In this document: piece after piece, positions 2,325-58,751 of the stretch
Layout of the letters: the number at the start of each line of letters is the position of its first letter
Position numbering within the stretch: the stretch's first letter is position 1
Virus genome (UHGV): UHGV-0064883
DNA: 64,000 nucleotides
Reading direction: 5' to 3' (one strand)
Source: a virus
Made by a program: the position numbers and the translations under genes
Notes under the pieces: generated by a model
Database searches by the model: none
Seen by the model: the letters and a program-made list of their open reading frames with translations, nothing else
What the model was told of the DNA's origin: nothing

Positions 2325-3080
2325 ATGCACGCCTATTTGCTCTACACACCGGGGGAAATGCTGGAAGGCGAAGACGAACTTACCGCACTGGGCTACCATG
2401 TCCATCCTTTTTTGGGCAATAATGATACGTCCGGCCTCCGGAACAAAGTCAAACACATTCCCAGCCTGGGGCATTCCGCGTCCTATTTATCAGACGGACT
2501 GGGCTACAACTGGTGCGGCCACGTCCATGCGCTCCGCGCCAACTTTGCAACCATGCTGGAAACTTACATGGATGCGGACGACCTTACTATATATGGAGAG
2601 TCGGACTGCGTGCCCGCGCCTTATCCCCCTGTGTCCGCCGACGATATTTCCTGTGTTTGTCAAGAAGCGGTTTCCCGGCATCCTGAAATCGGCATCATCC
2701 GTCTGTACCGCCGCGCCACACTATTTAACGAGCCTACCTGGTGGAACCATGCGCCCCTTGAGATTGTCCCGCTGAAAAAGGCGGCCAGAATCTCCAACAT
2801 TCCTTTTACGAAATATTACTGTCAAACCCACGCCCTGATTATCCGCAGGCACGTCCGCCAAACGGTCATCGACGCCATGCGGGATTATTATTTGCCCATT
2901 GACGTGCTCCTATCTTATTTGTCCCAGATTGGGACCGTGCCCGTGTGGCACACCAGCATCAACCTAATGCTTCAACGCCCCCACAGCACGGGAAAGAGGC
3001 TGGCGGACTGGCAGCGCAAACATTCTGTTCCGGCAGCGGACTATTGGCGCGACAGGCCCGGACTGACTGGAAAAAGGTAG
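2325..3080 (+). CDS. Identical second copy of the 251-aa protein; repeat copy B
   Basis: Identical translation to 656..1411. Confidence 0.55.
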   Translation: MHAYLLYTPGEMLEGEDELTALGYHVHPFLGNNDTSGLRNKVKHIPSLGHSASYLSDGLGYNWCGHVHALRANFATMLETYMDADDLTIYGESDCVPAPYPPVSADDISCVCQEAVSRHPEIGIIRLYRRATLFNEPTWWNHAPLEIVPLKKAARISNIPFTKYYCQTHALIIRRHVRQTVIDAMRDYYLPIDVLLSYLSQIGTVPVWHTSINLMLQRPHSTGKRLADWQRKHSVPAADYWRDRPGLTGKR

Positions 3081-5540: not shown

Positions 5541-5557
5541 TTACGTCTTTCTGCGAA

Positions 5558-5624: not shown

Positions 5625-6290
5625 ATGAGCGTTTTTACCTATCCGGTCGAGGGCCTTCGCCGCGTGCTGATTCCGCAGAAATGCGGCTGGACGCTAGCCT
5701 GGGATTCCCTCCCCCGCTGGAACGGTCGGGTGGTGATTGACTCCAATGACTACCCCGCGAAAAATCTGGACTGCATGTTTGTCAGGGAGCCGGTGGCCCG
5801 GTTCATGTCCGCTTTCCGGAACAAGATAGAGTTCGGGCCGCAGTCCTACCCCAAAAACGCCAACGGTCAGTTCAACGTCTGGTCCGGCATCCAATGGGTT
5901 GCCTGTGTGTGCGGCATCCCCCCGGACCTGGTGCAGAAGCAGGTTACTGTGTCCCTGATGCTGGACGTGTTGGAGGACATCATCAAAAAAAAACCGAGGG
6001 CGGCGCAATACAACCACGCCGTACTTGACCTGCACTGGTCCCCGCAGGTCTATCATGTGGCCCCCGGCCATATTCCGGAACTGCTCATTGACCCCCGGAA
6101 CGATTTTTCCGTCCTGGACAGATTAAAAATTGACTACTCTACGCACAATCACAATAATACCAGCCGTTATGGAGGCTACCAGCCTACACCGGAAGAGGTC
6201 GCACGCATCAAGGCCCTGTATGCCGAGGATGTAGCACTTTACGCCAGATACCAGCATGATTACGCCCTTCGCCAGTTACCCGCCCAGTGA
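5625..6290 (+). CDS. Sulfotransferase, PF03567-like (Sulfotransfer_2 family)
   Basis: IPQKCGWT matches the 5'-PSB PAPS-binding motif (P-K-x-G-x-T). MFVREPVARFMSAFRNK matches the 3'-PB motif (V-R-d-P-x-x-R-x-x-S-a-Y/F-r-n-K). Start taken at the first ATG, 5625; the ORF opens at GTG 5595. Confidence 0.7.
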   Translation: MSVFTYPVEGLRRVLIPQKCGWTLAWDSLPRWNGRVVIDSNDYPAKNLDCMFVREPVARFMSAFRNKIEFGPQSYPKNANGQFNVWSGIQWVACVCGIPPDLVQKQVTVSLMLDVLEDIIKKKPRAAQYNHAVLDLHWSPQVYHVAPGHIPELLIDPRNDFSVLDRLKIDYSTHNHNNTSRYGGYQPTPEEVARIKALYAEDVALYARYQHDYALRQLPAQ

Positions 6291-7107
6291 CGCCCCGGAG
6301 TTCATCAAATACTCCCACCACCTGATTGACCTCGCCTTGAGAAAAGCCCGGCGTCCGGCCATCCTCTGTTCCTACGGCAAGGATTCCGGCGTTGTCCTGC
6401 ATTTGCTCTCCCAGCACGTCGATTTATCCCGCATCGACGTTATTTACATTGATTCCACTTTTGAATTCCCGGCGTTTTACAAGCACATTGCCGGGATGAA
6501 AGCCTTTTTCGGCATCCGGCACGGCGGCCCTCATGACGTGCACTGCCAGAATAACCAGGCCATCCGTTCCGGCATGTCCTACGACAACACCCCGGTGCTC
6601 AAGTTGACGCAGACCCTGAAAACCGACGTATTGGTGCAGGTGCTGAAAGAGCGAAATATTGACTTTCTGTTCACCGGCATCCGGCGCGACGAAGAGGGTT
6701 CCCGTGCCAAGGAACGCTATTTCTCCTACCGGGAAGCCGACGGCACGTTTGACCCGGTAAGCAACCGCCCCGGATTCTATCCGCTGGACGGGCTGGATGT
6801 GCAGTCCCCCGGTTCCGGGCATTACCGCGTCAATATCCTTCTGGGCTGGTCGGAGCGGGACGTGTGGGAATACACGGAAAAGCACCTGCTTCCCGTCTGC
6901 CCGCTGTACCTTGCCAAAGACGGAAAGCGCTACCGCTCCCTTGGAGACGAGCCGGTGACTACTCCGGTGGATTCCGACGCTGACAGCATCGACAAAATCA
7001 TCAAGGAGCTGTACCATACCAGCGTGCCGGAACGGGCATGCCGGAAATCACAGGACAATTCCGCGCCGTACGCAATGGAGATGCTGCGGCGCAAGGGATT
7101 CTGCTAA
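6256..7107 (+). CDS. cysD: Sulfate adenylyltransferase subunit 2 (CysD; PAPS-reductase/PP-loop family)
   Basis: LCSYGKDSGVVLHLL (PP-loop SxGxDS), FTGIRRDEEGSRAKERYFSYRE, LGWSERDVWEYTEKHLLPVCPLY and RSLGDEPVTTPV align closely with the bacterial CysD blocks [49 protein letters not shown]...VPLY and RTLGCWPLTGAV. Confidence 0.85.
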   Translation: MITPFASYPPSDAPEFIKYSHHLIDLALRKARRPAILCSYGKDSGVVLHLLSQHVDLSRIDVIYIDSTFEFPAFYKHIAGMKAFFGIRHGGPHDVHCQNNQAIRSGMSYDNTPVLKLTQTLKTDVLVQVLKERNIDFLFTGIRRDEEGSRAKERYFSYREADGTFDPVSNRPGFYPLDGLDVQSPGSGHYRVNILLGWSERDVWEYTEKHLLPVCPLYLAKDGKRYRSLGDEPVTTPVDSDADSIDKIIKELYHTSVPERACRKSQDNSAPYAMEMLRRKGFC

Positions 7108-7137
7108 CAGTTCCATTTTTTCCTTTCCGCTCTTGCC

Positions 7138-7860
7138 ATGATACCGGATGACCCGTTCACCCAGCCGGAAAAAAAACCTGAAAAGCCGGGAGGCATCACG
7201 CAAATCTGGATAGGCGGAGAAGATAATATACCGCAGGAAATGCGGGAATGGATGTCCGGGGTGCGGGCCTACTGCAACCAGTTCAACCTTCCGTACCGCT
7301 GTTTGAACGGGAGGCAATGCAAGGCTCTGCTGGATGAGTTCGGCATCCCGTTCAATCCTACCGGGGGCATCATGAGCCTGACCGACATGGCGCGGGTGTG
7401 TGCCCTGAAAAAATGGGGCGGCTGGTATCTGGACACAGACGTAAAAATCCAGCGTCCGGCAGCCTTCCATGATTACTCGGTTTCTGTCTGCGAACAGGAG
7501 CCTTCTACTGTTTTTTACAATGCCATCACCTACGGCTGGATGTACAATCACGGAGTGCTTTATGCCTCCGGGGACGATTCCTGCCTGTTCCTGGATGCCA
7601 TGCTGGACGCGTGCCGGGAGACGTACAAGACAGTCCATGCTTCCGATTCCGGGTGGGGGCTGGAAAGCACCGTTCAGAATATGGTGCATCATGACCGCCA
7701 ATGGGTAGGCTGGCATCAAGGACTGCCAAAGGGCGTTTGCGATTGCGGCAATCCGTCCAGCATGATTAACCATGTGCTTTATGGGACCTGGTACAATAGC
7801 GCACACATGACTCCCGGCATCAAGGACGCGGAAACTTATTCAAAGGTTTCCGATTTGTAG
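7138..7860 (+). CDS. Glycosyltransferase, GT32-like (Och1/TcdA-type DXD sugar transferase)
   Basis: WIGGE...LTDMARVCALKKWGGWYLDTDV matches the GT32 signature (sD..R...L.k.GG.Y.D.D). Confidence 0.7.
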   Translation: MIPDDPFTQPEKKPEKPGGITQIWIGGEDNIPQEMREWMSGVRAYCNQFNLPYRCLNGRQCKALLDEFGIPFNPTGGIMSLTDMARVCALKKWGGWYLDTDVKIQRPAAFHDYSVSVCEQEPSTVFYNAITYGWMYNHGVLYASGDDSCLFLDAMLDACRETYKTVHASDSGWGLESTVQNMVHHDRQWVGWHQGLPKGVCDCGNPSSMINHVLYGTWYNSAHMTPGIKDAETYSKVSDL

Positions 7861-7909
7861 TCCGGAATAATTTTTGCAAAAAAGAAAAAACAATGGTAAT
7901 ACGTAGCGC

Positions 7910-8761
7910 ATGCCACGTGAAAAAATCATCATTGCCGTGTGCGGAATCCCTGACACGGGAAAAAGCACTTTTATCGCCAACGCCGCGAAACACCTGAACG
8001 GAATGGAGGTCCAGCCGGATGCCCTGTGCGTAGAGCAGCAGACCGGGAAAACCATTGCAACCTCATTCATCACCACCTGGGGCGAAGAGTGGCAGCGGGA
8101 CGGAAAAACCTGCGATTTGGTCTTTGTGGACTGCCCCGGCCATGTGCAGTTCCTTCCGGAGATTGTCGCGGGCTTGTCTGCGGCCCATGCCTACATTGTC
8201 ATCCATGACGCTTCCCGCATTGAGGCGAGCCAGGCATATGCCCGGATGCTGGAAGATGTCGCAGGCGTGCTTGGCGTGCCTCGGCTCGCCACCCTCTACA
8301 GCCATTGCGACAGCACCGGGGAATACTGCTACAACGTGGGTGTTGACAACCGGCTTCCGGGAATTGCCGAAAGGGTTATCCGGCGTGCCCTGGCGGGCGG
8401 CAAAGATAAGCTGGTTCATCCCACGGCATCCTGGCTTGGCTACATCCGGCAGGAGCCGTTCGATACGCCTGATGCCCGGCACAGGGTGTCCGTCATCTGG
8501 CTTCCCTGCGCTTCCCGGCTCACTCCGGTTTCCCTTCTCCGGGCAGAGCTTCCCGACCGAACGGTCGAACTCGGAGAGGCTGGCTCCGTTCTAGACCCCA
8601 TCCCCAGGGAAAGCGACTTCCAGACCGCCCCATTGATACGGCACATTTACCTGCAATTCCCTGTCCGGTATCTGGACCCCGTGCGCTTCCTGATTTGCGA
8701 CTCGGAGCTGGGAACGGTCGGAGTCGGAACAGTAACCCCGTGGGAAACCCAAATGTTATGA
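7910..8761 (+). CDS. CysN/EF-Tu-like GTPase (283 aa; truncated, divergent putative sulfate adenylyltransferase subunit 1)
   Basis: G1 CGIPDTGKST and G3 DCPGHVQF (DxPGH) match translation-factor/CysN GTPases. No canonical NKxD motif. Adjacent to cysD. Its stop overlaps the next start (ATGA). Confidence 0.55.
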   Translation: MPREKIIIAVCGIPDTGKSTFIANAAKHLNGMEVQPDALCVEQQTGKTIATSFITTWGEEWQRDGKTCDLVFVDCPGHVQFLPEIVAGLSAAHAYIVIHDASRIEASQAYARMLEDVAGVLGVPRLATLYSHCDSTGEYCYNVGVDNRLPGIAERVIRRALAGGKDKLVHPTASWLGYIRQEPFDTPDARHRVSVIWLPCASRLTPVSLLRAELPDRTVELGEAGSVLDPIPRESDFQTAPLIRHIYLQFPVRYLDPVRFLICDSELGTVGVGTVTPWETQML

Positions 8762-8979
8762 GCAACGTAGCTATCCCATACCAGCCCCACGACTGCCCCG
8801 TCTGCGGAAAGAACCTCTGCTACAGCGCCGGAAAGGACGGCTGCTATTATTCCTGCCCGGAATGCAGGTATTCCGTCCAGTCCGGTGCGACCCTGCAAGA
8901 AGCACAAAGGCATCTTTTCATCTTTGCGGCGGCAGTCCTCAAAAACCAGAACACGCAACACGACACCATCACCCAATGA
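8758..8979 (+). CDS. Small zinc-ribbon protein (73 aa)
   Basis: CPVCGKNLCYSAGKDGCYYSCPECRY contains two CxxC pairs. ATGA overlap with the upstream gene and with cysC downstream. Confidence 0.5.
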   Translation: MSNVAIPYQPHDCPVCGKNLCYSAGKDGCYYSCPECRYSVQSGATLQEAQRHLFIFAAAVLKNQNTQHDTITQ

Positions 8980-9479
8980 TTATTCTTCTCACCGGCGAAA
9001 GCGGCGTCGGAAAAACGTCTGTGGCAAAAACCCTGATGAACCGGCATCCGGGCATCCTTCTCGACGGCGACGACATGCGGGACGGATTGAACAGCGACCT
9101 TGGGTTTTCCGACCAGGACATCATGGAGAACATGCGCCGGGCGGCGCACATAGCCGTACTGCTGCATGACCAGCTTCCGGAAGACCGGCGCACGGTTTAC
9201 ATCACCTGCATTGCCCCGCTGCTGGCCGGAAGGAATCTGGTGCATGAGCTGTGCGGTTCCCGGTTGTGGGAGATTCGCATCCAGTATGATTACCGGGCTT
9301 CCGACGACGTAAAAGGGTTGTACAAGGCGGGAACCCCCATGCGGGCCTACGAAGAGTACCCCAGCGAAACGTTGCTGCTCCCCCGCCGGATAAACCGCGT
9401 GTACCGGTACTACAACGATACCGTGTGCGCTCTGGCCGCCAAAATAGAAAAGCTGTGGCCTGCGGACAAAACCGCTTGA
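8976..9479 (+). CDS. cysC: Adenylylsulfate (APS) kinase CysC
   Basis: ILLTGESGVGKTSVAKTL (P-loop), LLDGDDMRDGLNSDLGFSDQDIMENMRRAAHIA and KGLYKAGTPMRAYEEYP match the APS-kinase motifs TGLSGSGKST, LDGDNvRhGLnkDLgFsdeDR.ENiRR and KGLYkkAr.g....FTGi. Confidence 0.9.
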   Translation: MIILLTGESGVGKTSVAKTLMNRHPGILLDGDDMRDGLNSDLGFSDQDIMENMRRAAHIAVLLHDQLPEDRRTVYITCIAPLLAGRNLVHELCGSRLWEIRIQYDYRASDDVKGLYKAGTPMRAYEEYPSETLLLPRRINRVYRYYNDTVCALAAKIEKLWPADKTA

Positions 9480-9981: not shown

Positions 9982-9990
9982 CCCCCCCCC
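9982..9990. repeat. C9 homopolymer 7 nt upstream of the ATG at 9997
   Basis: tccccccccctaaaaaatg. Confidence 0.9.
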
Positions 9991-9996
9991 TAAAAA

Positions 9997-10638
9997 ATGA
10001 AACGTAAGCTTGGTCCGGTAGCGTTCATACTGGAAACGACACGCGCCTATCAACGGATAAGAAATACCATTTCCAGCCTATGTCTTGAGGGTACGCCCGT
10101 TTACCATAAGCGCAGTAAAAAAGGCTATTGCGTCCTTGCGGGTATTCCGCGGATAGGAGGAACATTCGACTTGCACCTGTACCGGTATGACACCGAGAAA
10201 AAAGGGGAAGAAGTTAAAAGTCTCTACAATATAACCCCGGAGCAATTTGACCTCTACGGCTACCAGTACGTGGAATTGACCTCTGCAAAATCTCCAACAA
10301 TAAGTTTTTCCAAGCTGCCTGTCCCCGGAAGGGAAGTGGACCCGGAAGGAAGGAGTAGATTTGCCTGCACCCGGCTTAAAGAATGGTCCAACCCGTGGTC
10401 AGAGTTCAAATGCTACCCCCAGGAAATCTGCTGGATGTATCTGGACGAGAGCAAAGACCCGGACGATGATACGGAGGTAAGTGTAGGCTATCCGTGGAAC
10501 GCTACTTCCAGGCATCCTCGCTACCCGTTCCAGAGGATGAAATGGTCCACTTTTGTCATACAGTACCGTATATTTTATGAATTTCACGGCCTCATAGACG
10601 GCCCGCATCCAACCTGTGAATACCCTGTAAACGAATGA
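9997..10638 (+). CDS. Hypothetical protein (213 aa)
   Basis: ORF. ATGA overlap with the next gene. Confidence 0.55.
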   Translation: MKRKLGPVAFILETTRAYQRIRNTISSLCLEGTPVYHKRSKKGYCVLAGIPRIGGTFDLHLYRYDTEKKGEEVKSLYNITPEQFDLYGYQYVELTSAKSPTISFSKLPVPGREVDPEGRSRFACTRLKEWSNPWSEFKCYPQEICWMYLDESKDPDDDTEVSVGYPWNATSRHPRYPFQRMKWSTFVIQYRIFYEFHGLIDGPHPTCEYPVNE

Positions 10639-12839: not shown

Positions 12840-13190
12840 ATGGATAAAGAAAATTGCAAACTGGAAACAAAGATGCCTGCCGCTAATTCAGCCCCGGAAC
12901 GCCCCACACGGTATTTGCGCCCTATCGGGGACAAAGTGCTTGTCCGGCTGAAAGAGCGTGAATCCCGCATAGGCTCTATCATTATCCCCGATTCCGCCCA
13001 AAAGGAAAATTGCTGGGGGGAAATCGTGGCTCTGGGGACTGCCGTTGACGCGGATATCTGCCACCTGGACCTGCACGACGTTGTCTATATCAGCCCCGCG
13101 CAGGGCACTTATCTTGTTTCCGGACAAAAGGACTTGATTCTTATCGAAGCCGGGCGCATTATGGCCAAGCTGCTTCCTGACGAGGATTAA
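12840..13190 (+). CDS. groES: Co-chaperonin GroES/Hsp10 homologue (phage-encoded)
   Basis: LRPIGDKVLVRLKERESRIGSIIIPDSAQKENCWGEIVALGTAV...DVVYISPAQGTYLVSGQKDLILIEAGRIMAKL follows the GroES pattern LrPLgDRVLVk..e.e.ktaGGI.lPdsAkEKp..GeVvAvG... Confidence 0.8.
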   Translation: MDKENCKLETKMPAANSAPERPTRYLRPIGDKVLVRLKERESRIGSIIIPDSAQKENCWGEIVALGTAVDADICHLDLHDVVYISPAQGTYLVSGQKDLILIEAGRIMAKLLPDED

Positions 13191-16466: not shown

Positions 16467-16483
16467 TTTGCAATCATTGCAAA
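16467..16483. promoter_or_regulatory. 17-bp palindrome TTTGCAATCATTGCAAA
   Basis: Between the stop at 16443 and the start at 16494. Confidence 0.8.
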
Positions 16484-16493
16484 AATACCCGCC

Positions 16494-18734
16494 ATGCCGC
16501 CCATACGCACCGCAACGTTCAGAAAAGCTTCCCCGGCCCTGCTTTTTAAATCCTACCGGCAATCCAAGGTTCCGGAAGGCGGCTGGACGCAGGAAAGCTT
16601 TTACACGGAAAACGGCGTTCGGCTGGTGCAGGACTGGGTGAAAATGAACCGCTCTGCGACGACAAAAAACGCGAGAATGCTTGCCCGGACGCTGAAAGCC
16701 CTGATTGAAAAAATACTCTACGAGATTGCCGACCGCATGGAAGGCATTGCGGAGTTGTCCGAAAAGAAGCGCCCGCACACGTACCAGCGAAAAACTACCG
16801 TGTTGTCCGGAGTATGGAGCAATATCATCAATGAGGTCCTGCACGATTTTTCCGGTGACGTGCAAGAGGCCGTTCAGCCCTACATGCAAAGCACGGCTGA
16901 TGACGTTGTGGACAAGGGGCGGCAACTGCTTGGGTCAACTGTGAACAGGACGGACACCACAACAATCAACAATTCCGTGCGTCAGGCCGCCAGGGAGATA
17001 ACCAGCGTGCCGAACACCATCCGGGACCGGATTAACCGCATCATCCAGCGTGAGTATGACAAGGGGTCCTCGGTGTTCGACACGATTGCCGCCGTGCGCC
17101 GACAAACCCCCTCATTGGCCGCTGGCCGCATTGCCACAATCGTCCGTACCGAACTTGGACGGGCTGCGGACATTGCCAACATCCAGGCGGCTATGGAAGG
17201 GACCTGCACGCACATGTCGGTTATCGGGTGCGAAACCATTGAACGCACCTACACCTACCGTGGCTTGCCGACATGCAACATTCAAAACGTTCCCATCAAC
17301 GAATGCATGAACGTCCGGTTCCATCCGAACCATACCGGGTGCTGGGTTCCTTCGGCATTCAGACAGTCGGACGGTTCAATCCCGGAACTGGACCCCCGCA
17401 GCAATTCCGGCCACGGGACTTTTGAGGAACAGCGGGAAAACCCGGAAGGGAACAGCGCCCCGTTCCTGAATCCAAGACCGGCCCCCGGCCCGGAAATGGA
17501 AAACCCGGTAACATTGGCCCCCACGCCGGAACCGCCTCCGGCCCCTATAGACATTCTTCCCCAGGGGTCATTGTCGCCAGTGCTGCCGACCACTCCGGAA
17601 AACTGCGGGGCGCCGGTTATCGGAAGACCGCTTCCGTCTGGGAAGCCGCCTAAAAATGTGCTTGATTTTGACATGCTTCCGGCGACCTACCAGGACACGG
17701 AAGAAGTGCGCAATGCCGTCAAGGTGATTCGCAATCACGCCAGTTCCGCGACAAGGTTTAACGCGAATGATGAGGACATTTACAACTTTTTCCGAACGGT
17801 CGGAGTTCTCCCGGATGCTATGGAATCCCTCTTGTTGCAGGACATCCCCATCAATCTGGCGGACACCACCGAACTGGTCATCCGCGCAGGGCGAACCTTT
17901 GACTGCATTGGAAGCGTAGGCGGAAAGCAGTCATTTTTGTACCGGCGCACCATATGCGTGGATGAACAGGGCAAATTGTACATCCACCACAACAGCTTTG
18001 AATTGTGGGCGCAATATCAGGGGAACGGGTACGCGAGAAAATTGCTGCAAAACCAGATTAACTTTTACGACGCTATCGGGGCCGAATATATCACACTGGC
18101 GGCCAACATTGACGTTGGAGCCTACGCGTGGGCCAGATACGGATTTTACCTGACTGACAGCGGCGCGGAAATGCTGACAAGGCAGCTGAAACGGAACTGG
18201 AACAGGATAATCACCAAAGACCTTGCCCCGGCCAACCCGTCAGACCGGGAAGCGTTCGATGCGTCGGTAGTCCGGCTGGAACGGATTGTAAACAAAGACC
18301 CGATGGACTCCAAGGACCTTTGGGCCATTGCGTCCGAACAGGTCAAAGTGCGTACCCCCGGAGGCCAGGAACGGAAACTGGGCTATCATGTGCTGACCGG
18401 AACCTTCTACGATGCCCAGCTGGATTTGAACAATCCGGAACAGTACGCGCGGCTGGTGTCGTACATCAGCCACAATCCTACGATTACCAAGGGGCGGGAG
18501 CTGTACTCCCTTGTTGACGGGCATCAGCAGGATGCCATGCTTCATGCGGAGTTCCTTTCCAGCGTATGGGGGAATTTCCGTGCCGACTTTGCCGGAGTGG
18601 AACAGGCCATACGTTCCGGATGCCCGGAAGATGAGGCGTTGTGGCTTTATGCGTCCCCGGAATCCGTGGCGCTCATGGCCCCGCAACTGCCGCAGGAATT
18701 GTACACCCGCTATCTGGCCCTTCTAAACCGATGA
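16494..18734 (+). CDS. Head morphogenesis protein (Mu F / SPP1 gp7 family) with a roughly 400-aa C-terminal extension
   Basis: RIATIVRTELGRAADIANIQAAMEGTCTHMSVIGCETIERTYTYRGLPTCNIQNVPINECMNVRFHPNHTGCWVP is the classic Phage_Mu_F signature. The C-terminal part contains QYQGNGYARKLL...AEYITLAA, which resembles GNAT motif A. Confidence 0.75.
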   Translation: MPPIRTATFRKASPALLFKSYRQSKVPEGGWTQESFYTENGVRLVQDWVKMNRSATTKNARMLARTLKALIEKILYEIADRMEGIAELSEKKRPHTYQRKTTVLSGVWSNIINEVLHDFSGDVQEAVQPYMQSTADDVVDKGRQLLGSTVNRTDTTTINNSVRQAAREITSVPNTIRDRINRIIQREYDKGSSVFDTIAAVRRQTPSLAAGRIATIVRTELGRAADIANIQAAMEGTCTHMSVIGCETIERTYTYRGLPTCNIQNVPINECMNVRFHPNHTGCWVPSAFRQSDGSIPELDPRSNSGHGTFEEQRENPEGNSAPFLNPRPAPGPEMENPVTLAPTPEPPPAPIDILPQGSLSPVLPTTPENCGAPVIGRPLPSGKPPKNVLDFDMLPATYQDTEEVRNAVKVIRNHASSATRFNANDEDIYNFFRTVGVLPDAMESLLLQDIPINLADTTELVIRAGRTFDCIGSVGGKQSFLYRRTICVDEQGKLYIHHNSFELWAQYQGNGYARKLLQNQINFYDAIGAEYITLAANIDVGAYAWARYGFYLTDSGAEMLTRQLKRNWNRIITKDLAPANPSDREAFDASVVRLERIVNKDPMDSKDLWAIASEQVKVRTPGGQERKLGYHVLTGTFYDAQLDLNNPEQYARLVSYISHNPTITKGRELYSLVDGHQQDAMLHAEFLSSVWGNFRADFAGVEQAIRSGCPEDEALWLYASPESVALMAPQLPQELYTRYLALLNR

Positions 18735-19448
18735 ACTTTGTCTGGCTCAACAACCAATTCGGCAACCAGATATGGCAGATTGCCGTGGCAACGTTTTTTT
18801 TTTGGAAGAGGGAACTTTGCCGCGATAACCTCCTATGCCGTGCCGCTGAAAGGAATTGGCTTCCATGCATTTCTGCATGTGCCTTGTTTTCCGTTCAACC
18901 GGGAGACAAGCGCCTTAGCGCCGCAAACGGTTTACGTCAAAAGAGGAACGCCCCTGCCTCCCGGCACGAACTCTATCATTGACGGGCAGTTGCAGGACGT
19001 AGCCTGGCTGCGCGGATTGAATATCCAGCAACTATTGACGTTTGATGGCATCGATAACGATTTTCGCATTGTCCATGTCCGGGGCGGCGATTTTTTTACC
19101 AGCAAGCCGCACAGGCCCTACGTCAAGAACCGGGACTGGTATCTTAAAGCCATTGACGCTGTGCCCGATATGCGGAAGCACCTGGATAAAACAATATTGC
19201 TTACGAACGACAAAAAATACGCGGGGAAAATCCTTCCCGAATTTCCCATACTGGACGTGCCGCCTTTGACTGCGTTCCGGTTGATGATGGGCTGCCGCTC
19301 TTTGGTCATATCCGCATCAACCTTTAGCTGGTGGGCAGGGTATCTTAACCCTTCGGCACAGATTGCCTGCCCTTCCCGGTGGTGCGGCGCCGGGGAAGAT
19401 TCGGAAAAATACTACGGGCACAATCGCCTGATGTTCATACCCGATTAG
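18731..19448 (+). pseudogene. GT11 alpha-1,2-fucosyltransferase-like gene interrupted by a +1 frameshift inside a T10 tract (18794-18803); possibly phase-variable
   Basis: N-terminal frame gives MNFVWLNNQFGNQIWQIAVATFFF (GT11 motif I, GGLGNQMFQYAfA). C-terminal frame 18738..19448 gives IVHVRGGDFF (HxRRGDY) and ISASTFSWWAGYL (motif III, STFSWWAAYL). Deleting one T would restore a roughly 239-aa ORF. The start overlaps the upstream stop (ATGA). Confidence 0.7.
18794..18803. repeat. T10 homopolymer that splits the GT11 reading frame
   Basis: acg tttttttttt gg. Frame 2 runs upstream and frame 0 downstream. Confidence 0.9.
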
Positions 19449-19464: not shown

Positions 19465-19481
19465 TTTGCAATGATTGCAAA
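19465..19481. promoter_or_regulatory. 17-bp palindrome, centre-G variant TTTGCAATGATTGCAAA
   Basis: 17 nt after the stop at 19448. Confidence 0.8.
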
Positions 19482-34389: not shown

Positions 34390-36870
34390 ATGGCATTACG
34401 GCGAGTACGAAGAGGGGAACCCCTGCGTATTGGACAGATTAACCAGTACGCCGAACTTCTTGGGCAGATGGCCGGGGGCGGAAAACTTTTCCGGGCTAAC
34501 AGGACCGGCTACCAGATGGACCGGGACCTGAACCCCCTGTTCCCGTTTGAGTTGATGGCCCTGGATGCCCAGTCAAGCACCGGGGAAGCTACAAAAGGCG
34601 TGCCGCTGGCGAAATCCAAGGATTTAATTGCGTTTCTCCACCCCGGTTCCGTCACGTTTATCGGACTGGACGGCGCAGCCTCACAGGTGTTCCCGGTCAT
34701 CAAAGACCCGAAATACGCCCCTACGGATTCCCCCGGCGGAGGAAACGAGGATGGAGCCGCCGTCAATACCTGGCCCCGCCCCGGTATTCAAATTGAGCTT
34801 GATACGGTATATGGCATTCATCTGTTCGCTAAATTGGAGCGAGTGACGATGCAGATAGGCCGTGACCGGATAATTCAGGTGTCGGTCAAGAAATGGTGTC
34901 GTGACCGCACCCCGTTCATCGGCACGGAGGACGAAATGGACAGCTCCGCTTCGGACGATGAAGATATTATCCGGACGTTCATTCCATTGTTCCGGCCCAT
35001 TGAAGACAGCGCAATCGAAGGAAATGTTTATGTGGAAAACCTGCATGAAAGCGATTTAATTCTTCCGGACATTCCGCTTGAAGGCGGGTCATCATCTTCC
35101 TCAGCGTCCTCTTCATCCAGCAGCTCCAGTAGTTCGAGCGGCGGAGTATCATTCAGCAGTTCAAGCAGCTCATCATCATCAAAATCAGAGGGTTCGGAAT
35201 CCGCATCTTTTTCCTCGTCTTCGTCGTCGGCAGGCCCCTACATTGACCCTACATTGATTTCCGTGCCGGCGCGGGAACCCAATTCGGAATTCGGCGGCAT
35301 CTACCGCACCCTGAAAGGCTTTAATTTTCCGCCCAGCGATGACAAGCCGGGCATGGCCTACATCATCATTTTCAGCCCTGTCGAATCTTGCGATTGGGTA
35401 AACTTTTCCACAGCCGGATTGGTGGTAACCAAGACGGACAAACAATGGGAAGGCTATGTTGCCATTGACGACAACGGGAACTGGGATTGCAACGTCATCA
35501 TTGACGAATTCACCGACCCGGAACATACCGGTGTCCACCGCTACAAAGATTTCAAAGTCGGCTACCGGGCTAAAAAGCAGAACATAGCCGTAGATATTCT
35601 CATTGTTGACCAGGCGCCCCCGGAAGCGTCCTCTTCCTCGTCTTCGTCGTCTGTGAGTTCATCTTCGGAAGAAAAGTATTATTTCCGGTTTGTCCCTAAT
35701 AAAATTACGGTGGACAGCCAATTTCAGAAAGTACAGGGCTATATCCGCACCGACTCCCCCTACGGGTGGAAAATCCCGGAGGACTTTCCGGCGCAGTTCC
35801 CTTCCGGGAAATGGGTATCTATTTCCCCGCTGACCGGGAAAGACCACGATAATTTTGAGGTTACGTTCCAGAAAAACGAGGAAGGGACCACCCGCGACAA
35901 TCTGGTAACAGGGTACGCATTGACCTCGCACGGCACATTGATGCTGGAAGCAACCGACACCCTGAATGTCACCCAGACCCCGGAAGCCTCTTTATCCAGC
36001 AGTTCCAGTAGTTCGAGCAGTTCCTCTTCATCTTCCTCGTCTTCCTCATCTTCCTCTTCCGGCTCGTCAAGCTCGTCCCAGGCGGACTGGTTTGAAGTGT
36101 TCCCCACTTCTATGGCTTTTAGCGCGGACGGCAAGCCAAAAGATTCTAACAAGGTAAGGCTTCGCGGAACGGTCGGATGGCGGGCTGATACGCAAAAAGA
36201 CTGGTGTTCCATGTCCCCGTCATCAGGCCCAGCGCCAGGGGACGCGGGAACGGAAGCCGTGATAACCTGCCAGCCGAACAAGGAGGTAAACGGAAGAAGC
36301 ACACTGGTTGAAATTAGCGTCACCCTGAATGGGTCCCCGCAATATTACTACGTCAATGTTATCCAGGAAGGCAATCCTCCTGTTCCTTCGTCGGAAAGCG
36401 AATCTTCCTCATCCTCGGAAGCCTCTTCGGGGGCCAGTTCGGCTTCATCAAGCAAAACCGCCATTTTGCCGGTGCGCGGAAAGTTCCTCGGCATGATGTG
36501 CATGGAGTCCCCGGAAACCTGGTTTATCGACTTTGCCACTATCCACCTCCCGCTTGGGCTGATGTTGGTTGACCAGACGTTCATTGATGTTACCGAGCCG
36601 GGTTCCATAGCGGTTGTGTCCGCCATAGATGACCGGGGCCGCCCCGCAAGAGCATGGCTGCGGCTGGAAGGCGGGGAAAAGAAATATCTGACCCTGTATG
36701 CCCGTCCGCAGGGGTTGGGCCGGATATTCAGGCCGGACCGCATTACCGTCCAACTGATAGGGAGGCGCCTCGGACACCGGAGCAGGTTCCCGGAATTTTC
36801 AGAAGCGCAGTTCCGGGCGAACGAAGCGTTCTACGCCCAGGCGCACAGGGAGAAAACCCCGAAAGATTAA
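34390..36870 (+). CDS. Tail fibre / receptor-binding protein with BACON-like domains and four poly-serine linkers
   Basis: Ser tracts are encoded at about 35097-35235, 35626-35665, 35992-36085 and 36395-36455. KDWCSMSPSSGPAPGDAGTEAVITCQPNKEVNGRSTLVEISVTLNGSPQYYYVNVIQEG and GKWVSISPLTGKDHDNFEVTF resemble BACON (DWlsvsp.sG.g....vtv.a..N.....R.a.itv......vtvtQ.g). Confidence 0.6.
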   Translation: MALRRVRRGEPLRIGQINQYAELLGQMAGGGKLFRANRTGYQMDRDLNPLFPFELMALDAQSSTGEATKGVPLAKSKDLIAFLHPGSVTFIGLDGAASQVFPVIKDPKYAPTDSPGGGNEDGAAVNTWPRPGIQIELDTVYGIHLFAKLERVTMQIGRDRIIQVSVKKWCRDRTPFIGTEDEMDSSASDDEDIIRTFIPLFRPIEDSAIEGNVYVENLHESDLILPDIPLEGGSSSSSASSSSSSSSSSSGGVSFSSSSSSSSSKSEGSESASFSSSSSSAGPYIDPTLISVPAREPNSEFGGIYRTLKGFNFPPSDDKPGMAYIIIFSPVESCDWVNFSTAGLVVTKTDKQWEGYVAIDDNGNWDCNVIIDEFTDPEHTGVHRYKDFKVGYRAKKQNIAVDILIVDQAPPEASSSSSSSSVSSSSEEKYYFRFVPNKITVDSQFQKVQGYIRTDSPYGWKIPEDFPAQFPSGKWVSISPLTGKDHDNFEVTFQKNEEGTTRDNLVTGYALTSHGTLMLEATDTLNVTQTPEASLSSSSSSSSSSSSSSSSSSSSSSGSSSSSQADWFEVFPTSMAFSADGKPKDSNKVRLRGTVGWRADTQKDWCSMSPSSGPAPGDAGTEAVITCQPNKEVNGRSTLVEISVTLNGSPQYYYVNVIQEGNPPVPSSESESSSSSEASSGASSASSSKTAILPVRGKFLGMMCMESPETWFIDFATIHLPLGLMLVDQTFIDVTEPGSIAVVSAIDDRGRPARAWLRLEGGEKKYLTLYARPQGLGRIFRPDRITVQLIGRRLGHRSRFPEFSEAQFRANEAFYAQAHREKTPKD

Positions 36871-37340: not shown

Positions 37341-37357
37341 TTTGCAATCATTGCAAA
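37341..37357. promoter_or_regulatory. 17-bp palindrome TTTGCAATCATTGCAAA between divergent genes
   Basis: Read directly from the sequence. Confidence 0.8.
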
Positions 37358-37410
37358 TTTCAGAAATCAATGTTGCCCATGAAAATTCAGGCGGCTATAG
37401 TGTCAAAGAC

Positions 37411-38463
37411 ATGATAACCTTAAACCATCTCGGAATATCCCACGCGGTCATCATTGCCCTGCCGGAACGTGCCGAACATGTTTCCCGGCTGAAAAACTCC
37501 ATGATTGACGGAGGCATCGACCCGGAAAGCGGCGTTACCATACTCCCCGCCTGGAACGGTCGTGAGCTGCACCCCCCGAAAAGCTGGAAGGGGACCCGTG
37601 GCGCATGGGGCTGCGTACAGTCCCACATCCGGGCCTTGCGGCTCGCAGTCAAAAACAATTGGGAATCAGTGCTCATTTTGGAGGACGACGCCATATTTTG
37701 CCGCAATGCCGCCGTCAGACTGCAAACGTTGTTTGCCGCTCTGCCGAAAGACTGGCGGTTGCTCTACCTCGGAGGCTACCACCAGAACTGGCCGAAAGAA
37801 GTCCACGCGGATTACATTCTGGCTTCCGGCATGACGGCCACCCATGCCTACATCGTCAAACGGGAATCCGTGCCCTGGCTTATCAAGCACATCGCCTATT
37901 ATCCCGACTATGAACAACAGCAATGGGGTGTTGACCAGCAAATCCGGAACGCCGTCTATCGGGGCGACATCCTCCAATACGCCCCGCGCTGGAATATTGT
38001 GGGGCAACAGCGTCAGGAGTACAGCACCATTGCCCATTCTAGAGCCGGAAACCGGGAACGCTGGTGGGAACATTCGCAAAACGACCAGTTCCGCCTGCTT
38101 CCGCTTGTACTTCTCCAAGAGCCGTTAACCGTGGAAGACGTTGACGGGCTTGAGGAACTGGTGGACATCGCCCCGGAAAAAAGCGTTGAATCCCTCCTGG
38201 AAAAAACGGAAGACATGGCCGGCGCCATCATTGAAGCACTTTCCTACAGCGCACGGGGGGCGTTCAGCCACCGGCGCGTTCCCGCCCTGTATTACAGCGA
38301 CCGGAAAGCTGCGGACAGATGCGCCCGCCTGTGGTCTGCGGAATGCCTGTTTGCCGAAGCCGGTGATTCCGACCAAACCAGGGAACTACTCGTTACCACC
38401 CTGCGCCGCATTGTCGATTATGCGGAAAACCCGGATATGAACCCGGACATGGGCGAAAACTAA
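37411..38463 (+). CDS. Glycosyltransferase family 25 (LPS-type) paralogue 1
   Basis: HAVIIALPERAEHVSRL...GAWGCVQSHIRALRLAV...VLILEDDAIFCRNA...LLYLGGYHQN. Start at the ATG at 37411; the ORF track opens with TTG at 37342, inside the palindrome. Confidence 0.7.
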   Translation: MITLNHLGISHAVIIALPERAEHVSRLKNSMIDGGIDPESGVTILPAWNGRELHPPKSWKGTRGAWGCVQSHIRALRLAVKNNWESVLILEDDAIFCRNAAVRLQTLFAALPKDWRLLYLGGYHQNWPKEVHADYILASGMTATHAYIVKRESVPWLIKHIAYYPDYEQQQWGVDQQIRNAVYRGDILQYAPRWNIVGQQRQEYSTIAHSRAGNRERWWEHSQNDQFRLLPLVLLQEPLTVEDVDGLEELVDIAPEKSVESLLEKTEDMAGAIIEALSYSARGAFSHRRVPALYYSDRKAADRCARLWSAECLFAEAGDSDQTRELLVTTLRRIVDYAENPDMNPDMGEN

Positions 38464-38485
38464 TTCTTTTTCCACGCACATTACT

Positions 38486-39526
38486 ATGGATTATTTATTT
38501 CCGCATTATTTTGACCGTATTGTCGTCATCAATCTCGCCAAAAACCCCGAACGGTTCACCCGCATTGCCGACGAGCTGAAACATAAGTGCCTGGCCGGGC
38601 CGGATGATATTGTCAGGCATGAAGCCGTGCATGGGGATTCCATGCCGCACCCGGCATGGTACAGGGCCGGAAACGGAGCATGGGGGTGCTTATCCAGCCA
38701 CATTGAGGTGCTGGAAGATGCCTGGAATACCGGAAGCGAGCATACTCTGATTATTGAGGATGACACCGTATTCGCCGACGACCTTTTGACGCGGTTCCCG
38801 GAAATCATGAAAGAAGTTCCGAAGGAATACGGGCAGCTGTATCTTGGAGGCCAGCACCAGCAGGCCCCGGAAGCCCTGTCTGACACGTTGTGGCGCGGCA
38901 CGTCCATCAACCGGACGCACTGCTACGCCGTCACCCGGAAATTCATTCCGGAAATCCTCGCCCACATCATGGACTGGGACACCCACATCAAGGCTGCGGG
39001 AAACCCGCTCCATATCGACCACACGCTGGAAATCGGACACCAGCGCCGGTACTGGCCCGTGTTCTGCCCCCGGTTCTGGTTCGCCGGGCAGGGAGAAAAC
39101 CAATCCGACATCAACGGCAGGCCGCAGCGGGAAATGTGGTGGGAATATTCCGTGAAACAACAACACCTGGAACTTCCCCTGCTTGTGTTGCGGACCGTTG
39201 ACATGCCAAAACATATTAAAGACCTTGTGTTTGCCGGTTGGCCGACAGATTTGGACGCCCGTGGCGTGAACAAAAAAATTGAGGATGCCAAAAAAGACAA
39301 GGCCACCCTGCTTCGGGAAATAAGCTGGCTGGCTTATGTGGGATTCCAACACCACAGCCTTCCGGCGGTGTATCTTCCGGAGCCGGAACCTACCAGCGAG
39401 CTGCAACGCCTGTGGTCCGGGGAAGTCGTTGACACGGCCCGCATGGATGACGCGGACATTCACCGGATGCACCGCATTCTGGAATTCGCCAGCAACCCGG
39501 AGATGCTAAAGTATAGGTTCCGATAG
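38486..39526 (+). CDS. Glycosyltransferase family 25 paralogue 2
   Basis: RIVVINLAKNPERF...GAWGCLSSHIEVLEDA...TLIIEDDTVFADD...LYLGGQHQQ. The C-terminal 130 aa are paralogous to gene 37411. Confidence 0.7.
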   Translation: MDYLFPHYFDRIVVINLAKNPERFTRIADELKHKCLAGPDDIVRHEAVHGDSMPHPAWYRAGNGAWGCLSSHIEVLEDAWNTGSEHTLIIEDDTVFADDLLTRFPEIMKEVPKEYGQLYLGGQHQQAPEALSDTLWRGTSINRTHCYAVTRKFIPEILAHIMDWDTHIKAAGNPLHIDHTLEIGHQRRYWPVFCPRFWFAGQGENQSDINGRPQREMWWEYSVKQQHLELPLLVLRTVDMPKHIKDLVFAGWPTDLDARGVNKKIEDAKKDKATLLREISWLAYVGFQHHSLPAVYLPEPEPTSELQRLWSGEVVDTARMDDADIHRMHRILEFASNPEMLKYRFR

Positions 39527-56784: not shown

Positions 56785-58209
56785 ATGGACGCTATTTTAT
56801 CTCAACTTTGCTGGATTCCAAAAATGCGGTTAACGCCGACACAGGAAGCGGAATTGATTTCCGACCTGACTATTTACCCACGGCTTTCCGGGTTTTCGGA
56901 TGATGCAGCTCTGAAAAAGATTCAAACGTTCATTTCCGGCAAAACTTATATCGGCGTGCCGTGCTTTTACGGGCGGCAGTGGTGCGAGAAGCACCGCATT
57001 GCCATTAAGGATGACACGTCTTCCGGGTTTAACATTTCCCGGTACATCCGCAAGTTGCCCGACCCGCATCATCCGTCCGCTTCCCAGGGGCAGGAAGAAT
57101 TCTTTTCTTCCCTTCTGGAAACGGTCAAATCCAACAATACCGTTTTGGCCGAAGCCCCCACTGGAAGCGGAAAAACCGTGACGGCATTGAATGCCATTGG
57201 TCGCCTGGGGCGTTCCGCGCTGATAGTCGTCCCGAACGGTCCATTGATGGAACAATGGAAAAAAGAGGCTATCCGGCATCTTGGATTGACCGAGGATGAA
57301 GTCGGCGTGATTGGCGGGGGTAAATCCGTTTGGAAGGACAAGCCGGTGGTGGTGGCTATCATTCACAATATTTGCATGGCCTCCATGCCGGATGCGTTTT
57401 ACCGGGCGTTTGGTATTACGGTATGGGATGAGGCCCATGTTGTGGGTGCGGAGTGGTTTAGTTTGTCCACGCAGCACCTGCGCTCAAAATACCGGATTGC
57501 CATTACCGCCACCCCAAACCGTTCCGATGGGTGCATGCGAATTGTTACGGACGCATTCGGCCCCGTTGCCGTAAGGCATAGCGGGAACGCGGTTCCGCTG
57601 ATTTATGCCCCGTTGAGTTACAATCTCCCGGCTAAACTGCGGGCCTGGGCTGACCGTGCCCAGGGTAAAGAGATGTCCAGAGTGCTAAAGGCCTTGACCG
57701 CTGACTTGCCGCGTAATATTAAAATCGGGAGGCTGGCGGTTGCCGGATATAAAAAAAACCGTAACATACTGCTGATTTCCGACCGCATTTCCCACTTGGA
57801 GGCCATGCAGGATATTTTAGTTCATCTCGGCATTCCGTCCGAACACATAGGCATGTTTTCCGGGGCGGTAAAGGGCGACAAGGACGCATCCGGGAAAAAA
57901 AAGTTGACCAAAAAACAAAAACTGGATGATGTGGTCAAAAATCCTAAATACCGGGTGATTCTGGCGACCTACGCAATGATGAAACTCGGAATTGATATCC
58001 CCCGGCTCGACATGGGAATTGACATCAGTCCGAAGAGTGAGGCCGTGCAGACTGTGGGGCGCATCAGGAGGCCGTTCCCGAACAAGCCGACCCCAGTCTG
58101 GTTTACGGTTGTCGATTCCAGCCGGAAATTCCAGGCCCTGTACCGCAGCCGGGAACGGGAACTGCTGTCGAAGGGCAGCGTAGAAATAAGACCGATTAAA
58201 ACTTTATGA
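56785..58209 (+). CDS. Superfamily-2 (DEAD/DEAH-box) DNA helicase
   Basis: Motif I AEAPTGSGKTV, II VWDEAHVV, III ITATPNRSDG, V LATYAMMKLGIDIP, VI VQTVGRIRR. Confidence 0.8.
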   Translation: MDAILSQLCWIPKMRLTPTQEAELISDLTIYPRLSGFSDDAALKKIQTFISGKTYIGVPCFYGRQWCEKHRIAIKDDTSSGFNISRYIRKLPDPHHPSASQGQEEFFSSLLETVKSNNTVLAEAPTGSGKTVTALNAIGRLGRSALIVVPNGPLMEQWKKEAIRHLGLTEDEVGVIGGGKSVWKDKPVVVAIIHNICMASMPDAFYRAFGITVWDEAHVVGAEWFSLSTQHLRSKYRIAITATPNRSDGCMRIVTDAFGPVAVRHSGNAVPLIYAPLSYNLPAKLRAWADRAQGKEMSRVLKALTADLPRNIKIGRLAVAGYKKNRNILLISDRISHLEAMQDILVHLGIPSEHIGMFSGAVKGDKDASGKKKLTKKQKLDDVVKNPKYRVILATYAMMKLGIDIPRLDMGIDISPKSEAVQTVGRIRRPFPNKPTPVWFTVVDSSRKFQALYRSRERELLSKGSVEIRPIKTL

Positions 58210-58751
58210 CATTAAGTGACACTAACAAAACTGCTGTTGAGGCCGGAGCCGGGAATGATTCTGCCCGGATTCCTGGCCGCAAAAAAAAATACGAGACAAA
58301 GCGTGAAATGCAGATAGCGAAAAACCGCTACCACAAAACGCTGACCTACAAAGTCAAAAACCGGGCGCGGTATCATGTGGATTCCGACTACCGGGAATCG
58401 GTACGATTGCAAAACCGGAAAGCAAATGAGCGGAAGAAACGCATCATGCTGGCGCAGGCAGTCGTCCGGGGAGGGAAGTACCTGCGTGCGGTGATGAACG
58501 AACCGCCCATTGTCGTTGCTGGGGAAGAGCTGATAACAAGAAAAAGATTTTTGGAGTTAATCAGCCGGTCATATCCAACCCTGGTACGGTGGAGGGCACA
58601 CAGAAAATTTACCGTGGAGGAAGTGCACATTTCCGTGGTCCGGAACGGTCGAGTTGTCCCCCGTCTGGAACAGATAGCCTACCGGAAAAAAGATTTAATC
58701 CAATTCATCGATGCCAACCGCGAGTATGTCGGACTGACGAAAACGAGCTAA
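58206..58751 (+). CDS. Hypothetical basic protein (181 aa)
   Basis: ORF. ATGA overlap with the helicase. Confidence 0.5.
   Translation: MTLSDTNKTAVEAGAGNDSARIPGRKKKYETKREMQIAKNRYHKTLTYKVKNRARYHVDSDYRESVRLQNRKANERKKRIMLAQAVVRGGKYLRAVMNEPPIVVAGEELITRKRFLELISRSYPTLVRWRAHRKFTVEEVHISVVRNGRVVPRLEQIAYRKKDLIQFIDANREYVGLTKTS

Follow-up and report, generated by a model that had tools for sequence, protein, structure and literature searches.

In Helicobacter pylori, homopolymeric tracts in futA, futB and futC switch the fucosylation of Lewis antigens (PMC2583950), and in phage T2 a run of nine adenines (A9) in the alpha-glucosyltransferase gene agt has been proven to act as a reversible contingency locus (Gomez, Barrick & Waters 2025, bioRxiv 10.1101/2025.10.21.683753). 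Here we describe a run of ten thymines (T10, positions 18794–18803) in a GT11-family glycosyltransferase gene of an uncultured gut phage. The gene lies in a 64,000-nucleotide (nt) stretch of virus genome UHGV-0064883, hereafter the window, which corresponds to positions 1–64000 of a 92-kb human-gut metagenome contig (ERZ1689905, NODE_30_length_92307_cov_9.89). The comparisons set out below suggest that this T-run, at codons 22–24 of the gene, is probably a slippage-prone simple-repeat contingency locus. It would add to this known class of switch a poly-T example in a GT11 gene, recognized in an uncultured gut phage from natural-population data rather than laboratory selection.

A preliminary description of the sequence had invoked the Helicobacter genes as a precedent. 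The futC product is a GT11 alpha-1,2-fucosyltransferase and the closest family-level analogue of the phage protein. In both cases a fucosyltransferase-family gene is turned ON or OFF by the length of a coding homopolymer near its 5′ end, and in H. pylori, a human-associated microbe, the outcome is population heterogeneity in fucosylated, Lewis-type glycans. The fut genes, however, are bacterial and chromosomal, with long poly-C tracts (12–14) and very high switching rates, whereas the phage gene is viral, carries a short poly-T tract (9/10) and encodes a minimal protein of 238 amino acids (aa), about 25–30% identical to its nearest homologues outside the phage clade.

The T2 tract is the closest precedent. 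Both genes contain a 9-nt A/T homopolymer (A9 versus T9) inside a phage glycosyltransferase gene, both are inactivated by one-base frameshifts, and in both the tract is the dominant mutational target. For agt, escape from TgvAB is traded against sensitivity to McrBC, the read-level frequency is 7 × 10⁻⁴, and reversion is ∼1000 times that of a single-nucleotide polymorphism (SNP) mutant (10.1101/2025.10.21.683753). Unlike the GT11 protein, to which it is unrelated in sequence, the T2 enzyme glucosylates phage DNA at 5-hydroxymethylcytosine; the GT11 substrate is probably a glycan, and only +1 variants are seen at its tract. Moreover, reversibility and trade-off in T2 come from a laboratory experiment, while the evidence for the GT11 tract is natural polymorphism across human-gut metagenomes.

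Two further systems are related in outcome. Campylobacter phages reportedly carry hypermutable poly-G homopolymers that yield phenotypically mixed progeny; there the tracts lie in receptor-binding protein genes and affect host range, whereas here a poly-T tract lies in an accessory glycan enzyme. The prophage gtr operons for O-antigen glycosyltransferases (P22, Salmonella) are phase-variable, phage-borne glycan-modifying genes (PMC2909390). Their switch is epigenetic, acting through Dam and OxyR at the promoter, and their products are the membrane proteins GtrABC of temperate phages; the GT11 switch would be a coding repeat, in a gene of the late head-gene block.

A T10 tract at the frame junction of a GT11 gene

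The GT11 gene starts at an ATG (18731–18733) on the plus strand, as do all features of the gene described here. Its first 24 codons in frame A read MNFVWLNNQFGNQIWQIAVATFFF, and the T10 tract then lies at 18794–18803, the longest homopolymer of the window. Codons 1–21 (18731–18793), MNFVWLNNQFGNQIWQIAVAT, contain a GNQxxQ motif, as read from the sequence, an alignment of 20 homologues and a structure model. With ten Ts, frame A reaches a stop at 18980–18982, and the expected OFF product (18731–18982) is a truncated protein of 83 aa, 24 of them native and 59 out of frame. The remainder of the gene, residues 25–238 with the motifs HVRGGDF and STFSWWAGYL, continues in the +1 frame from 18804 to 19448 with no further lesion. 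The preliminary description had placed motif I in one frame and the later motifs in the +1 frame, joined exactly at the ten Ts, and direct reading of the sequence bears this out.

Setting the tract to T9, which encodes F22–F24 in frame, restores an uninterrupted open reading frame (ORF) of 238 aa, and T12 gives 239 aa; T8, T10 and T11 are all out of frame. The tract is thus a coding repeat whose changes in length shift the reading frame, and the earlier proposal that deleting one T or adding two would yield an intact protein, then put at ∼239 aa, is correct. Alternative starts do not offer a way around the lesion. A TTG at 18738 (236 aa) and a GTG at 18840 (202 aa) were rejected as sources of functional enzyme because their products lack the invariant G11/N12 motif; the 236-aa product is also absent from public protein calls. 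Since G11 and N12 lie upstream of the tract, restarts beyond it, such as the 202-aa gene call, should be inactive.

The family assignment holds as well. The T9-repaired protein matches Pfam PF01531 (Glyco_transf_11) over residues 109–209 with 40.5 bits, against a gathering cut-off of 23.9, and matches phrog_2644 “glycosyltransferase” at 4.8e-13; PF01531 is present in all close and distant homologues. Searches of the repaired protein against NCBIfam gave no match and of the PDB by sequence only spurious ones, but the predicted structure has a GT-B-type fucosyltransferase fold, matching NodZ, POFUT1 and FUT1. In the 20-homologue alignment, which reaches down to ∼25% identity, G11 and N12 of the N-terminal motif G11-N12-Q13-I-W-Q16 are invariant and Q16 is conserved in ≥90%. 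The H, first R, G and D of H115-V-R-G-G-D-F are invariant, as are S196, F198, W200, W201 and L205 of the C-terminal motif, with T197 and S199 at ≥90%. The preliminary description had named the last two motifs as HxRRGDY-like and STFSWWAxYL. The latter is present in the +1 frame as predicted. In place of the former, the donor-binding motif, the +1 frame has the letters HVRGGDF, with Gly across the whole subfamily where the classical motif has its second Arg. Membership of the family points to fucosyltransferase activity, presumably with guanosine diphosphate-fucose as donor and a virion or host surface glycan as acceptor, although GT11 also holds other specificities.

In the structure model, a strand (residues 2–6) is followed by the first helix (10–24), and the tract-encoded F22–F24 form the end of that helix. 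Distant homologues have VKRFG where FFF stands here; the T-run is therefore specific to the phage lineage and is not demanded by the fold. A second, shorter run in the gene, T7 at 19091–19097 (GGDFFT), is not a switch: T6 is confined there to three error-prone assemblies, and in some haplotypes the site is not a homopolymer.

Recurrent T9/T10 polymorphism among related genomes

To see how the tract varies in nature, its length was compared across assembled contigs and public protein calls, ∼160 related contigs in all, with exact-sequence look-ups covering 15 billion proteins. The in-frame T9 form is the majority in every clade, including that with the most divergent 5′ flank (L185/L186), and was read from DNA in 37 distinct contigs. 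T10 was read from DNA in the window and in contigs L003–L007, L218 and L219, and every OFF form whose DNA was read is T10. In total, OFF forms make up 12–16 of the ∼160 contigs (8–10%). For the two main haplotypes, the protein look-ups returned no product of T8, T6 or T12.

The OFF state does not belong to one lineage. At least five gene haplotypes carry it, and each of these has a T9 twin, identical in DNA for the L003 haplotype and in protein for the others. On the window haplotype, the ON 238-aa protein (P0042) is found in 22 contigs and the OFF form, a 202-aa call (P0027), in 5. The corresponding counts are 65 (P0041) and 4–6 (P0003) for the L003 haplotype, 14 and 2–4 (P0043) for the P0028-type haplotype, and 8 and 1 (P0044) for the P0032-type haplotype, the OFF forms again being 202-aa calls; four other haplotypes, with 36 ON contigs in total, have no OFF form. 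Three T9 contigs (L198, L204 and L205) are identical to the T10 contig L003 across all 717 nt except the tract. Over 6.5 kb, L003 is closest to L205, with 6 SNPs and the tract as the sole indel, and the T10 contig L005 is closest to a T9 contig, L206. Because T10 genomes have T9 genomes as nearest neighbors, T10 is polyphyletic, and the most economical reading of these alleles would be at least five independent, recent T9→T10 events. The alternative that all T10 alleles form one stable lineage marked by a pair of linked synonymous SNPs (GCA...AGA) was rejected, because in a larger sample these SNPs also occurred together with T9, and T10 was found next to different flanks.

T10 is also inherited, since L005 (SRR35139608) and L007 (ERR13995111), from unrelated sequencing projects, are identical over 4,199 base pairs (bp) and both carry it; their nearest T9 relative is 14 SNPs away. 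The polymorphism in tract length is therefore recurrent among near-identical genomes and heritable. Comparison with related genomes, proposed in the preliminary description as a check, thus returned mostly T9, with T10 as a recurrent minority.

Between these contigs the flanking genes share ∼98% DNA identity, against which the GT11 gene stands out as a diversity hotspot, with 7–10% nucleotide divergence versus ∼2% in neighboring genes and a mosaic block at gene nt 200–330, which suggests recombination or diversifying selection. The ratio of nonsynonymous to synonymous polymorphism (pN/pS) between T10 alleles, 0.23, is uninformative because their divergence stems from mosaic recombination with ON alleles. 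Two other lesions of the gene were seen among relatives: a frameshift near codon 75 (the GTPLPPG region) in L008 (SRR1275441), with T9 intact, and an allele (P0006 / L187–L188, OLOW01 assembly) whose N-terminal 90 residues are replaced or on a separate contig.

Other homopolymers of this phage provide a measure of how exceptional the tract is. Across 35 loci of 6.5 kb, just one other frame-breaking 1-nt indel occurs in coding sequence, and the A8 run of the protease gene (22068) is invariant. In 10–11 further relatives the coding runs (sulfotransferase A9, GT32-like A8, and A7 and T7 runs) are constant, and intergenic runs vary freely, as at the C9 run at 9982–9990, whose length is 7, 8 or 9. 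An ORF-length scan of all runs of at least 7 for other frameshifts did not discriminate. The sulfotransferase gene (PF03567; 5625–6290, plus strand) holds an A9 tract at 5985–5993 that is in frame in the window and in 10 of the 10 relatives fetched. A database-wide search for this protein nevertheless recovered frameshift forms located exactly at the A9 tract. These forms amount to ∼7% of distinct sequences, all from Logan assemblies, and comprise A10 (P0051, 26 members) and A8 (P0052, 23; P0053, 4), against ∼726 members for the intact form. By this comparison the sulfotransferase A9 tract is a candidate second switch in the glycan toolkit of the same phage. A third A9 tract, in a 181-aa ORF at 58206–58751, showed no frameshift cluster, a weak test in that N-terminal frameshift forms would hide in the main cluster.

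A probable contingency locus and competing explanations

The contingency-locus reading accounts for these observations as follows. T9, the tract length of most genomes in this gut phage species, would keep the gene in frame and ON, and slippage of the DNA polymerase would add one T again and again to give T10. The T10 allele, which the window holds, would end after 83 codons, lose the whole catalytic part and so be OFF. Since the extra T is the sole lesion, a one-base contraction would bring the gene back, and phage populations would then be expected to be mixed for a glycan-modifying step. By analogy with the A9 tract of T2 agt, elevated reversible switching within one population is expected. 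A fitness trade-off between ON and OFF, and with it some selective advantage of OFF, is hinted at indirectly by OFF reaching consensus in some samples and by an OFF lineage common to two cohorts.

Several observations weigh against this reading. The tract is not beyond what codon usage predicts: three coding runs of at least 9 are observed against 2.65 expected after synonymous shuffling, neither enriched nor depleted, and there is thus no sign of selection for mutability. Good-quality OFF alleles are without exception +1, a one-sidedness not expected if slippage were simple and symmetric. When IMG/VR and JGI metagenomes were scanned without bias, none of 13 full-length loci had T10. The OFF alleles are young and undecayed, and short-lived dead ends would look alike. 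Finally, the ∼7% of frameshifted forms at the sulfotransferase 9-mer could mean that any 9-mer in a dispensable gene does likewise.

These points lead to a serious rival, a nonadaptive, recurrent loss of function, which we consider unlikely. By this account T9 is simply the most mutable site of a dispensable gene, under mutation–selection balance rather than used as a switch: T10 alleles would arise repeatedly, drift or hitchhike to dominance in some guts, and vanish without reverting. The youth of the OFF alleles, all of which match extant ON alleles and lack secondary decay, agrees with it, as do the ordinary frequency of the tract relative to synonymous shuffles, the similar behavior of the other dispensable-looking 9-mer gene, and the existence of other one-off lesions (the L008 frameshift and P0006). 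Yet OFF is the consensus in about a tenth or slightly fewer of the assemblies, and at least one OFF lineage spans unrelated cohorts, both hard to explain for a purely deleterious variant. Moreover, T10 is at least as slippery as T9, so that reversion is expected, as measured for T2 agt.

A second alternative concerns RNA rather than DNA. If RNA polymerase slipped on U10/A10, or the ribosome made a +1 slip on UUU UUU UUU UGG, some full-length enzyme would be made, and T10 would be a low-expression state rather than a null. Such rescue, which can coexist with a DNA-level switch, we hold to be very unlikely here. It has precedents: runs of nine or more A or T are established bacterial sites of transcriptional slippage (PMC1088944), and an A11 run restores the frame of the interrupted tssM gene of Citrobacter rodentium (PMC4256274). 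As in those systems, an A/T run of at least 9 stands at the GT11 frame junction, and a fraction of transcripts could restore the frame. Rescue would also explain why good-quality OFF alleles are T10 only and never T8; the sulfotransferase shows both −1 and +1 forms. However, the +1-only pattern amounts to ∼5 independent events (P ∼ 0.03). In tssM, furthermore, the interrupted form is fixed and both products are needed, whereas in GT11 it is a minority, recently derived allele. The site also shows neither hallmark of programmed recoding, a conserved out-of-frame arrangement or a downstream RNA structure. T9 is ancestral and in the majority, T10 is polyphyletic and young, and the out-of-frame state is thus not conserved, so this is not a programmed recoding site. 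A stimulatory structure is likewise missing, as RNA folded from 45–100 nt around or after the tract was no better than shuffled sequence (z from +1.85 to −1.23, depending on the stretch folded). By analogy with the bacterial cases, transcriptional slippage on U10 may still leak some full-length enzyme.

It is extremely improbable that the extra T is a sequencing or assembly artefact and the real genome T9, a possibility that the preliminary description had raised. Homopolymer errors do exist in public assemblies. In three Logan assemblies (L009–L011; ERR4563092, ERR4563839 and ERR4563841) the switch reads T6 or T8, the second run reads T6 in place of T7, and the 746-aa gene is split; since further genes are also broken at homopolymers in them, their T6/T8 alleles were discounted as tract variants. 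Coverage of the window’s contig is only ∼10×, and all sulfotransferase frameshift forms come from Logan alone. Against this, T10 recurs in at least 12 contigs from both SPAdes and Logan, among them the two identical T10 contigs of unrelated projects, and on T10 contigs other long runs are correct and neighboring genes intact. Stutter of the polymerase chain reaction at mononucleotide runs is biased toward contraction, whereas only +1 is seen here. Because T10 is reproducible across pipelines and cohorts, assembly error is excluded for practical purposes. A decaying pseudogene, the other alternative considered at the outset, is excluded because each OFF allele equals a living ON allele, and the relatives do not carry a decayed gene.

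Genomic context and the glycan toolkit

The GT11 gene follows a 746-aa gene (16494–18734, plus strand) of the head-morphogenesis region, downstream of the portal gene, for which no Pfam or NCBIfam family was found. The TGA stop of this gene and the start of the GT11 gene share bases (ATGA), and this arrangement suggests that the two are translationally coupled and expressed together late. Just upstream of the 746-aa gene lies a 17-bp palindrome, TTTGCAATCATTGCAAA (16467–16483), and a second copy lies 17 nt past the GT11 stop (19465–19481), neither assigned to a strand; the two are probable start and end boundaries of the GT11 transcription unit. This perfect palindrome, TTTGCAAT(C/G)ATTGCAAA, occurs in 19 copies in the window versus 0.05 expected. 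The copies span 1421–63462 (for example 5558, 9616, 16467, 19465, 23502 and 37341) and lie mostly between ORFs, with a few overlapping a listed ORF end and several followed by a T-run. The element is probably a phage promoter, operator or terminator that delimits transcription units. Six independent Logan contigs (L224–L229) end near window position 5550, at a palindrome copy that precedes the CysD-like gene by ∼700 bp; assemblies repeatedly break off here, owing either to a repeat or to a variable junction.

The phage origin assumed in the preliminary description is borne out by structural genes (portal, S78 protease, HK97-like capsid and a BACON-domain protein) and replication genes (DnaB, PolA, helicase and RecA) in the contig. 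No transfer RNA genes were found in the phage and no lysogeny genes were seen in the window, and a distant DNA search of INPHARED with 3.1 kb around the GT11 gene gave no match. The size of 83–92 kb, the gene order and the BACON domain would fit the “Flandersviridae” gut phages of Bacteroides and Parabacteroides (PMC8008677). A Cpn10/GroES homologue is encoded at 12840–13190 (4110–4460 of L001), upstream of the portal gene. A 251-aa ORF is present twice (656–1411 and 2325–3080), as a 1,669-bp direct repeat that has two C8 runs per unit (223 and 614; 1892 and 2283); its copy number varies, with one in L220, L222 and L223 and two in L221. The C9 run at 9982–9990 stands 7 nt upstream of the ATG of a 213-aa ORF (9997–10638); L223, L224 and L228 have this ORF in two parts of 145 and 60 aa, and in L227 its length is 206 aa.

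Other glycan enzymes accompany the GT11 gene. A sulfation module at 5625–9479 encodes the sulfotransferase, a CysD-like protein (PAPS_reduct domain), a GT32-like DXD protein, a CysN-like GTPase and an APS kinase. Judged from these domains, it would constitute a complete supply of 3′-phosphoadenosine-5′-phosphosulfate (PAPS), the activated-sulfate donor, together with a transferase, in a gut phage. Two adjacent genes of the GT25 family (lipopolysaccharide type; 37342–39526 and 34390–36870) lie by an 826-aa BACON-domain protein in the tail/baseplate region.

These elements can be combined into a broader picture that, taken as a whole, is quite unlikely. A widespread “Flandersviridae”-like gut phage, probably on Bacteroidales, would decorate either its virion or the infected cell with a mucin- or Lewis-like glycan bearing both fucose and sulfate, using a PAPS pathway of its own, the sulfotransferase, and the GT11, GT25 and GT32-like enzymes. 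At least two of the steps, fucosylation (T9/T10) and sulfation (A8/A9/A10), would be independently phase variable by way of coding homopolymers, and the exclusively +1 OFF state would be a low state, leaky through transcription slippage, and not a null. If so, the glycan coats of the progeny would differ in combinatorial fashion, the viral equivalent of Lewis-antigen variation in H. pylori.

The narrower finding may be relevant in several ways. First, it was not until 2025 that contingency loci were demonstrated in phages, namely in coliphages and vibriophages of the laboratory; the GT11 tract of this abundant uncultured phage adds evidence for the mechanism from natural populations, its polymorphism being seen across dozens of independent metagenomes of the human gut. 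Second, it carries a warning for annotation, in that what looks like a “pseudogene” here would be a switchable allele, and the site at 18794–18803 is suited to read-level surveys of existing metagenomes. Finally, the family affected is the one that Helicobacter phase-varies to mimic host Lewis antigens. Gut phages may thus hedge their bets on glycan decoration with fucose and sulfate; if they do, mucus adherence, host range or evasion of defence, and recognition by antibodies could all be affected.

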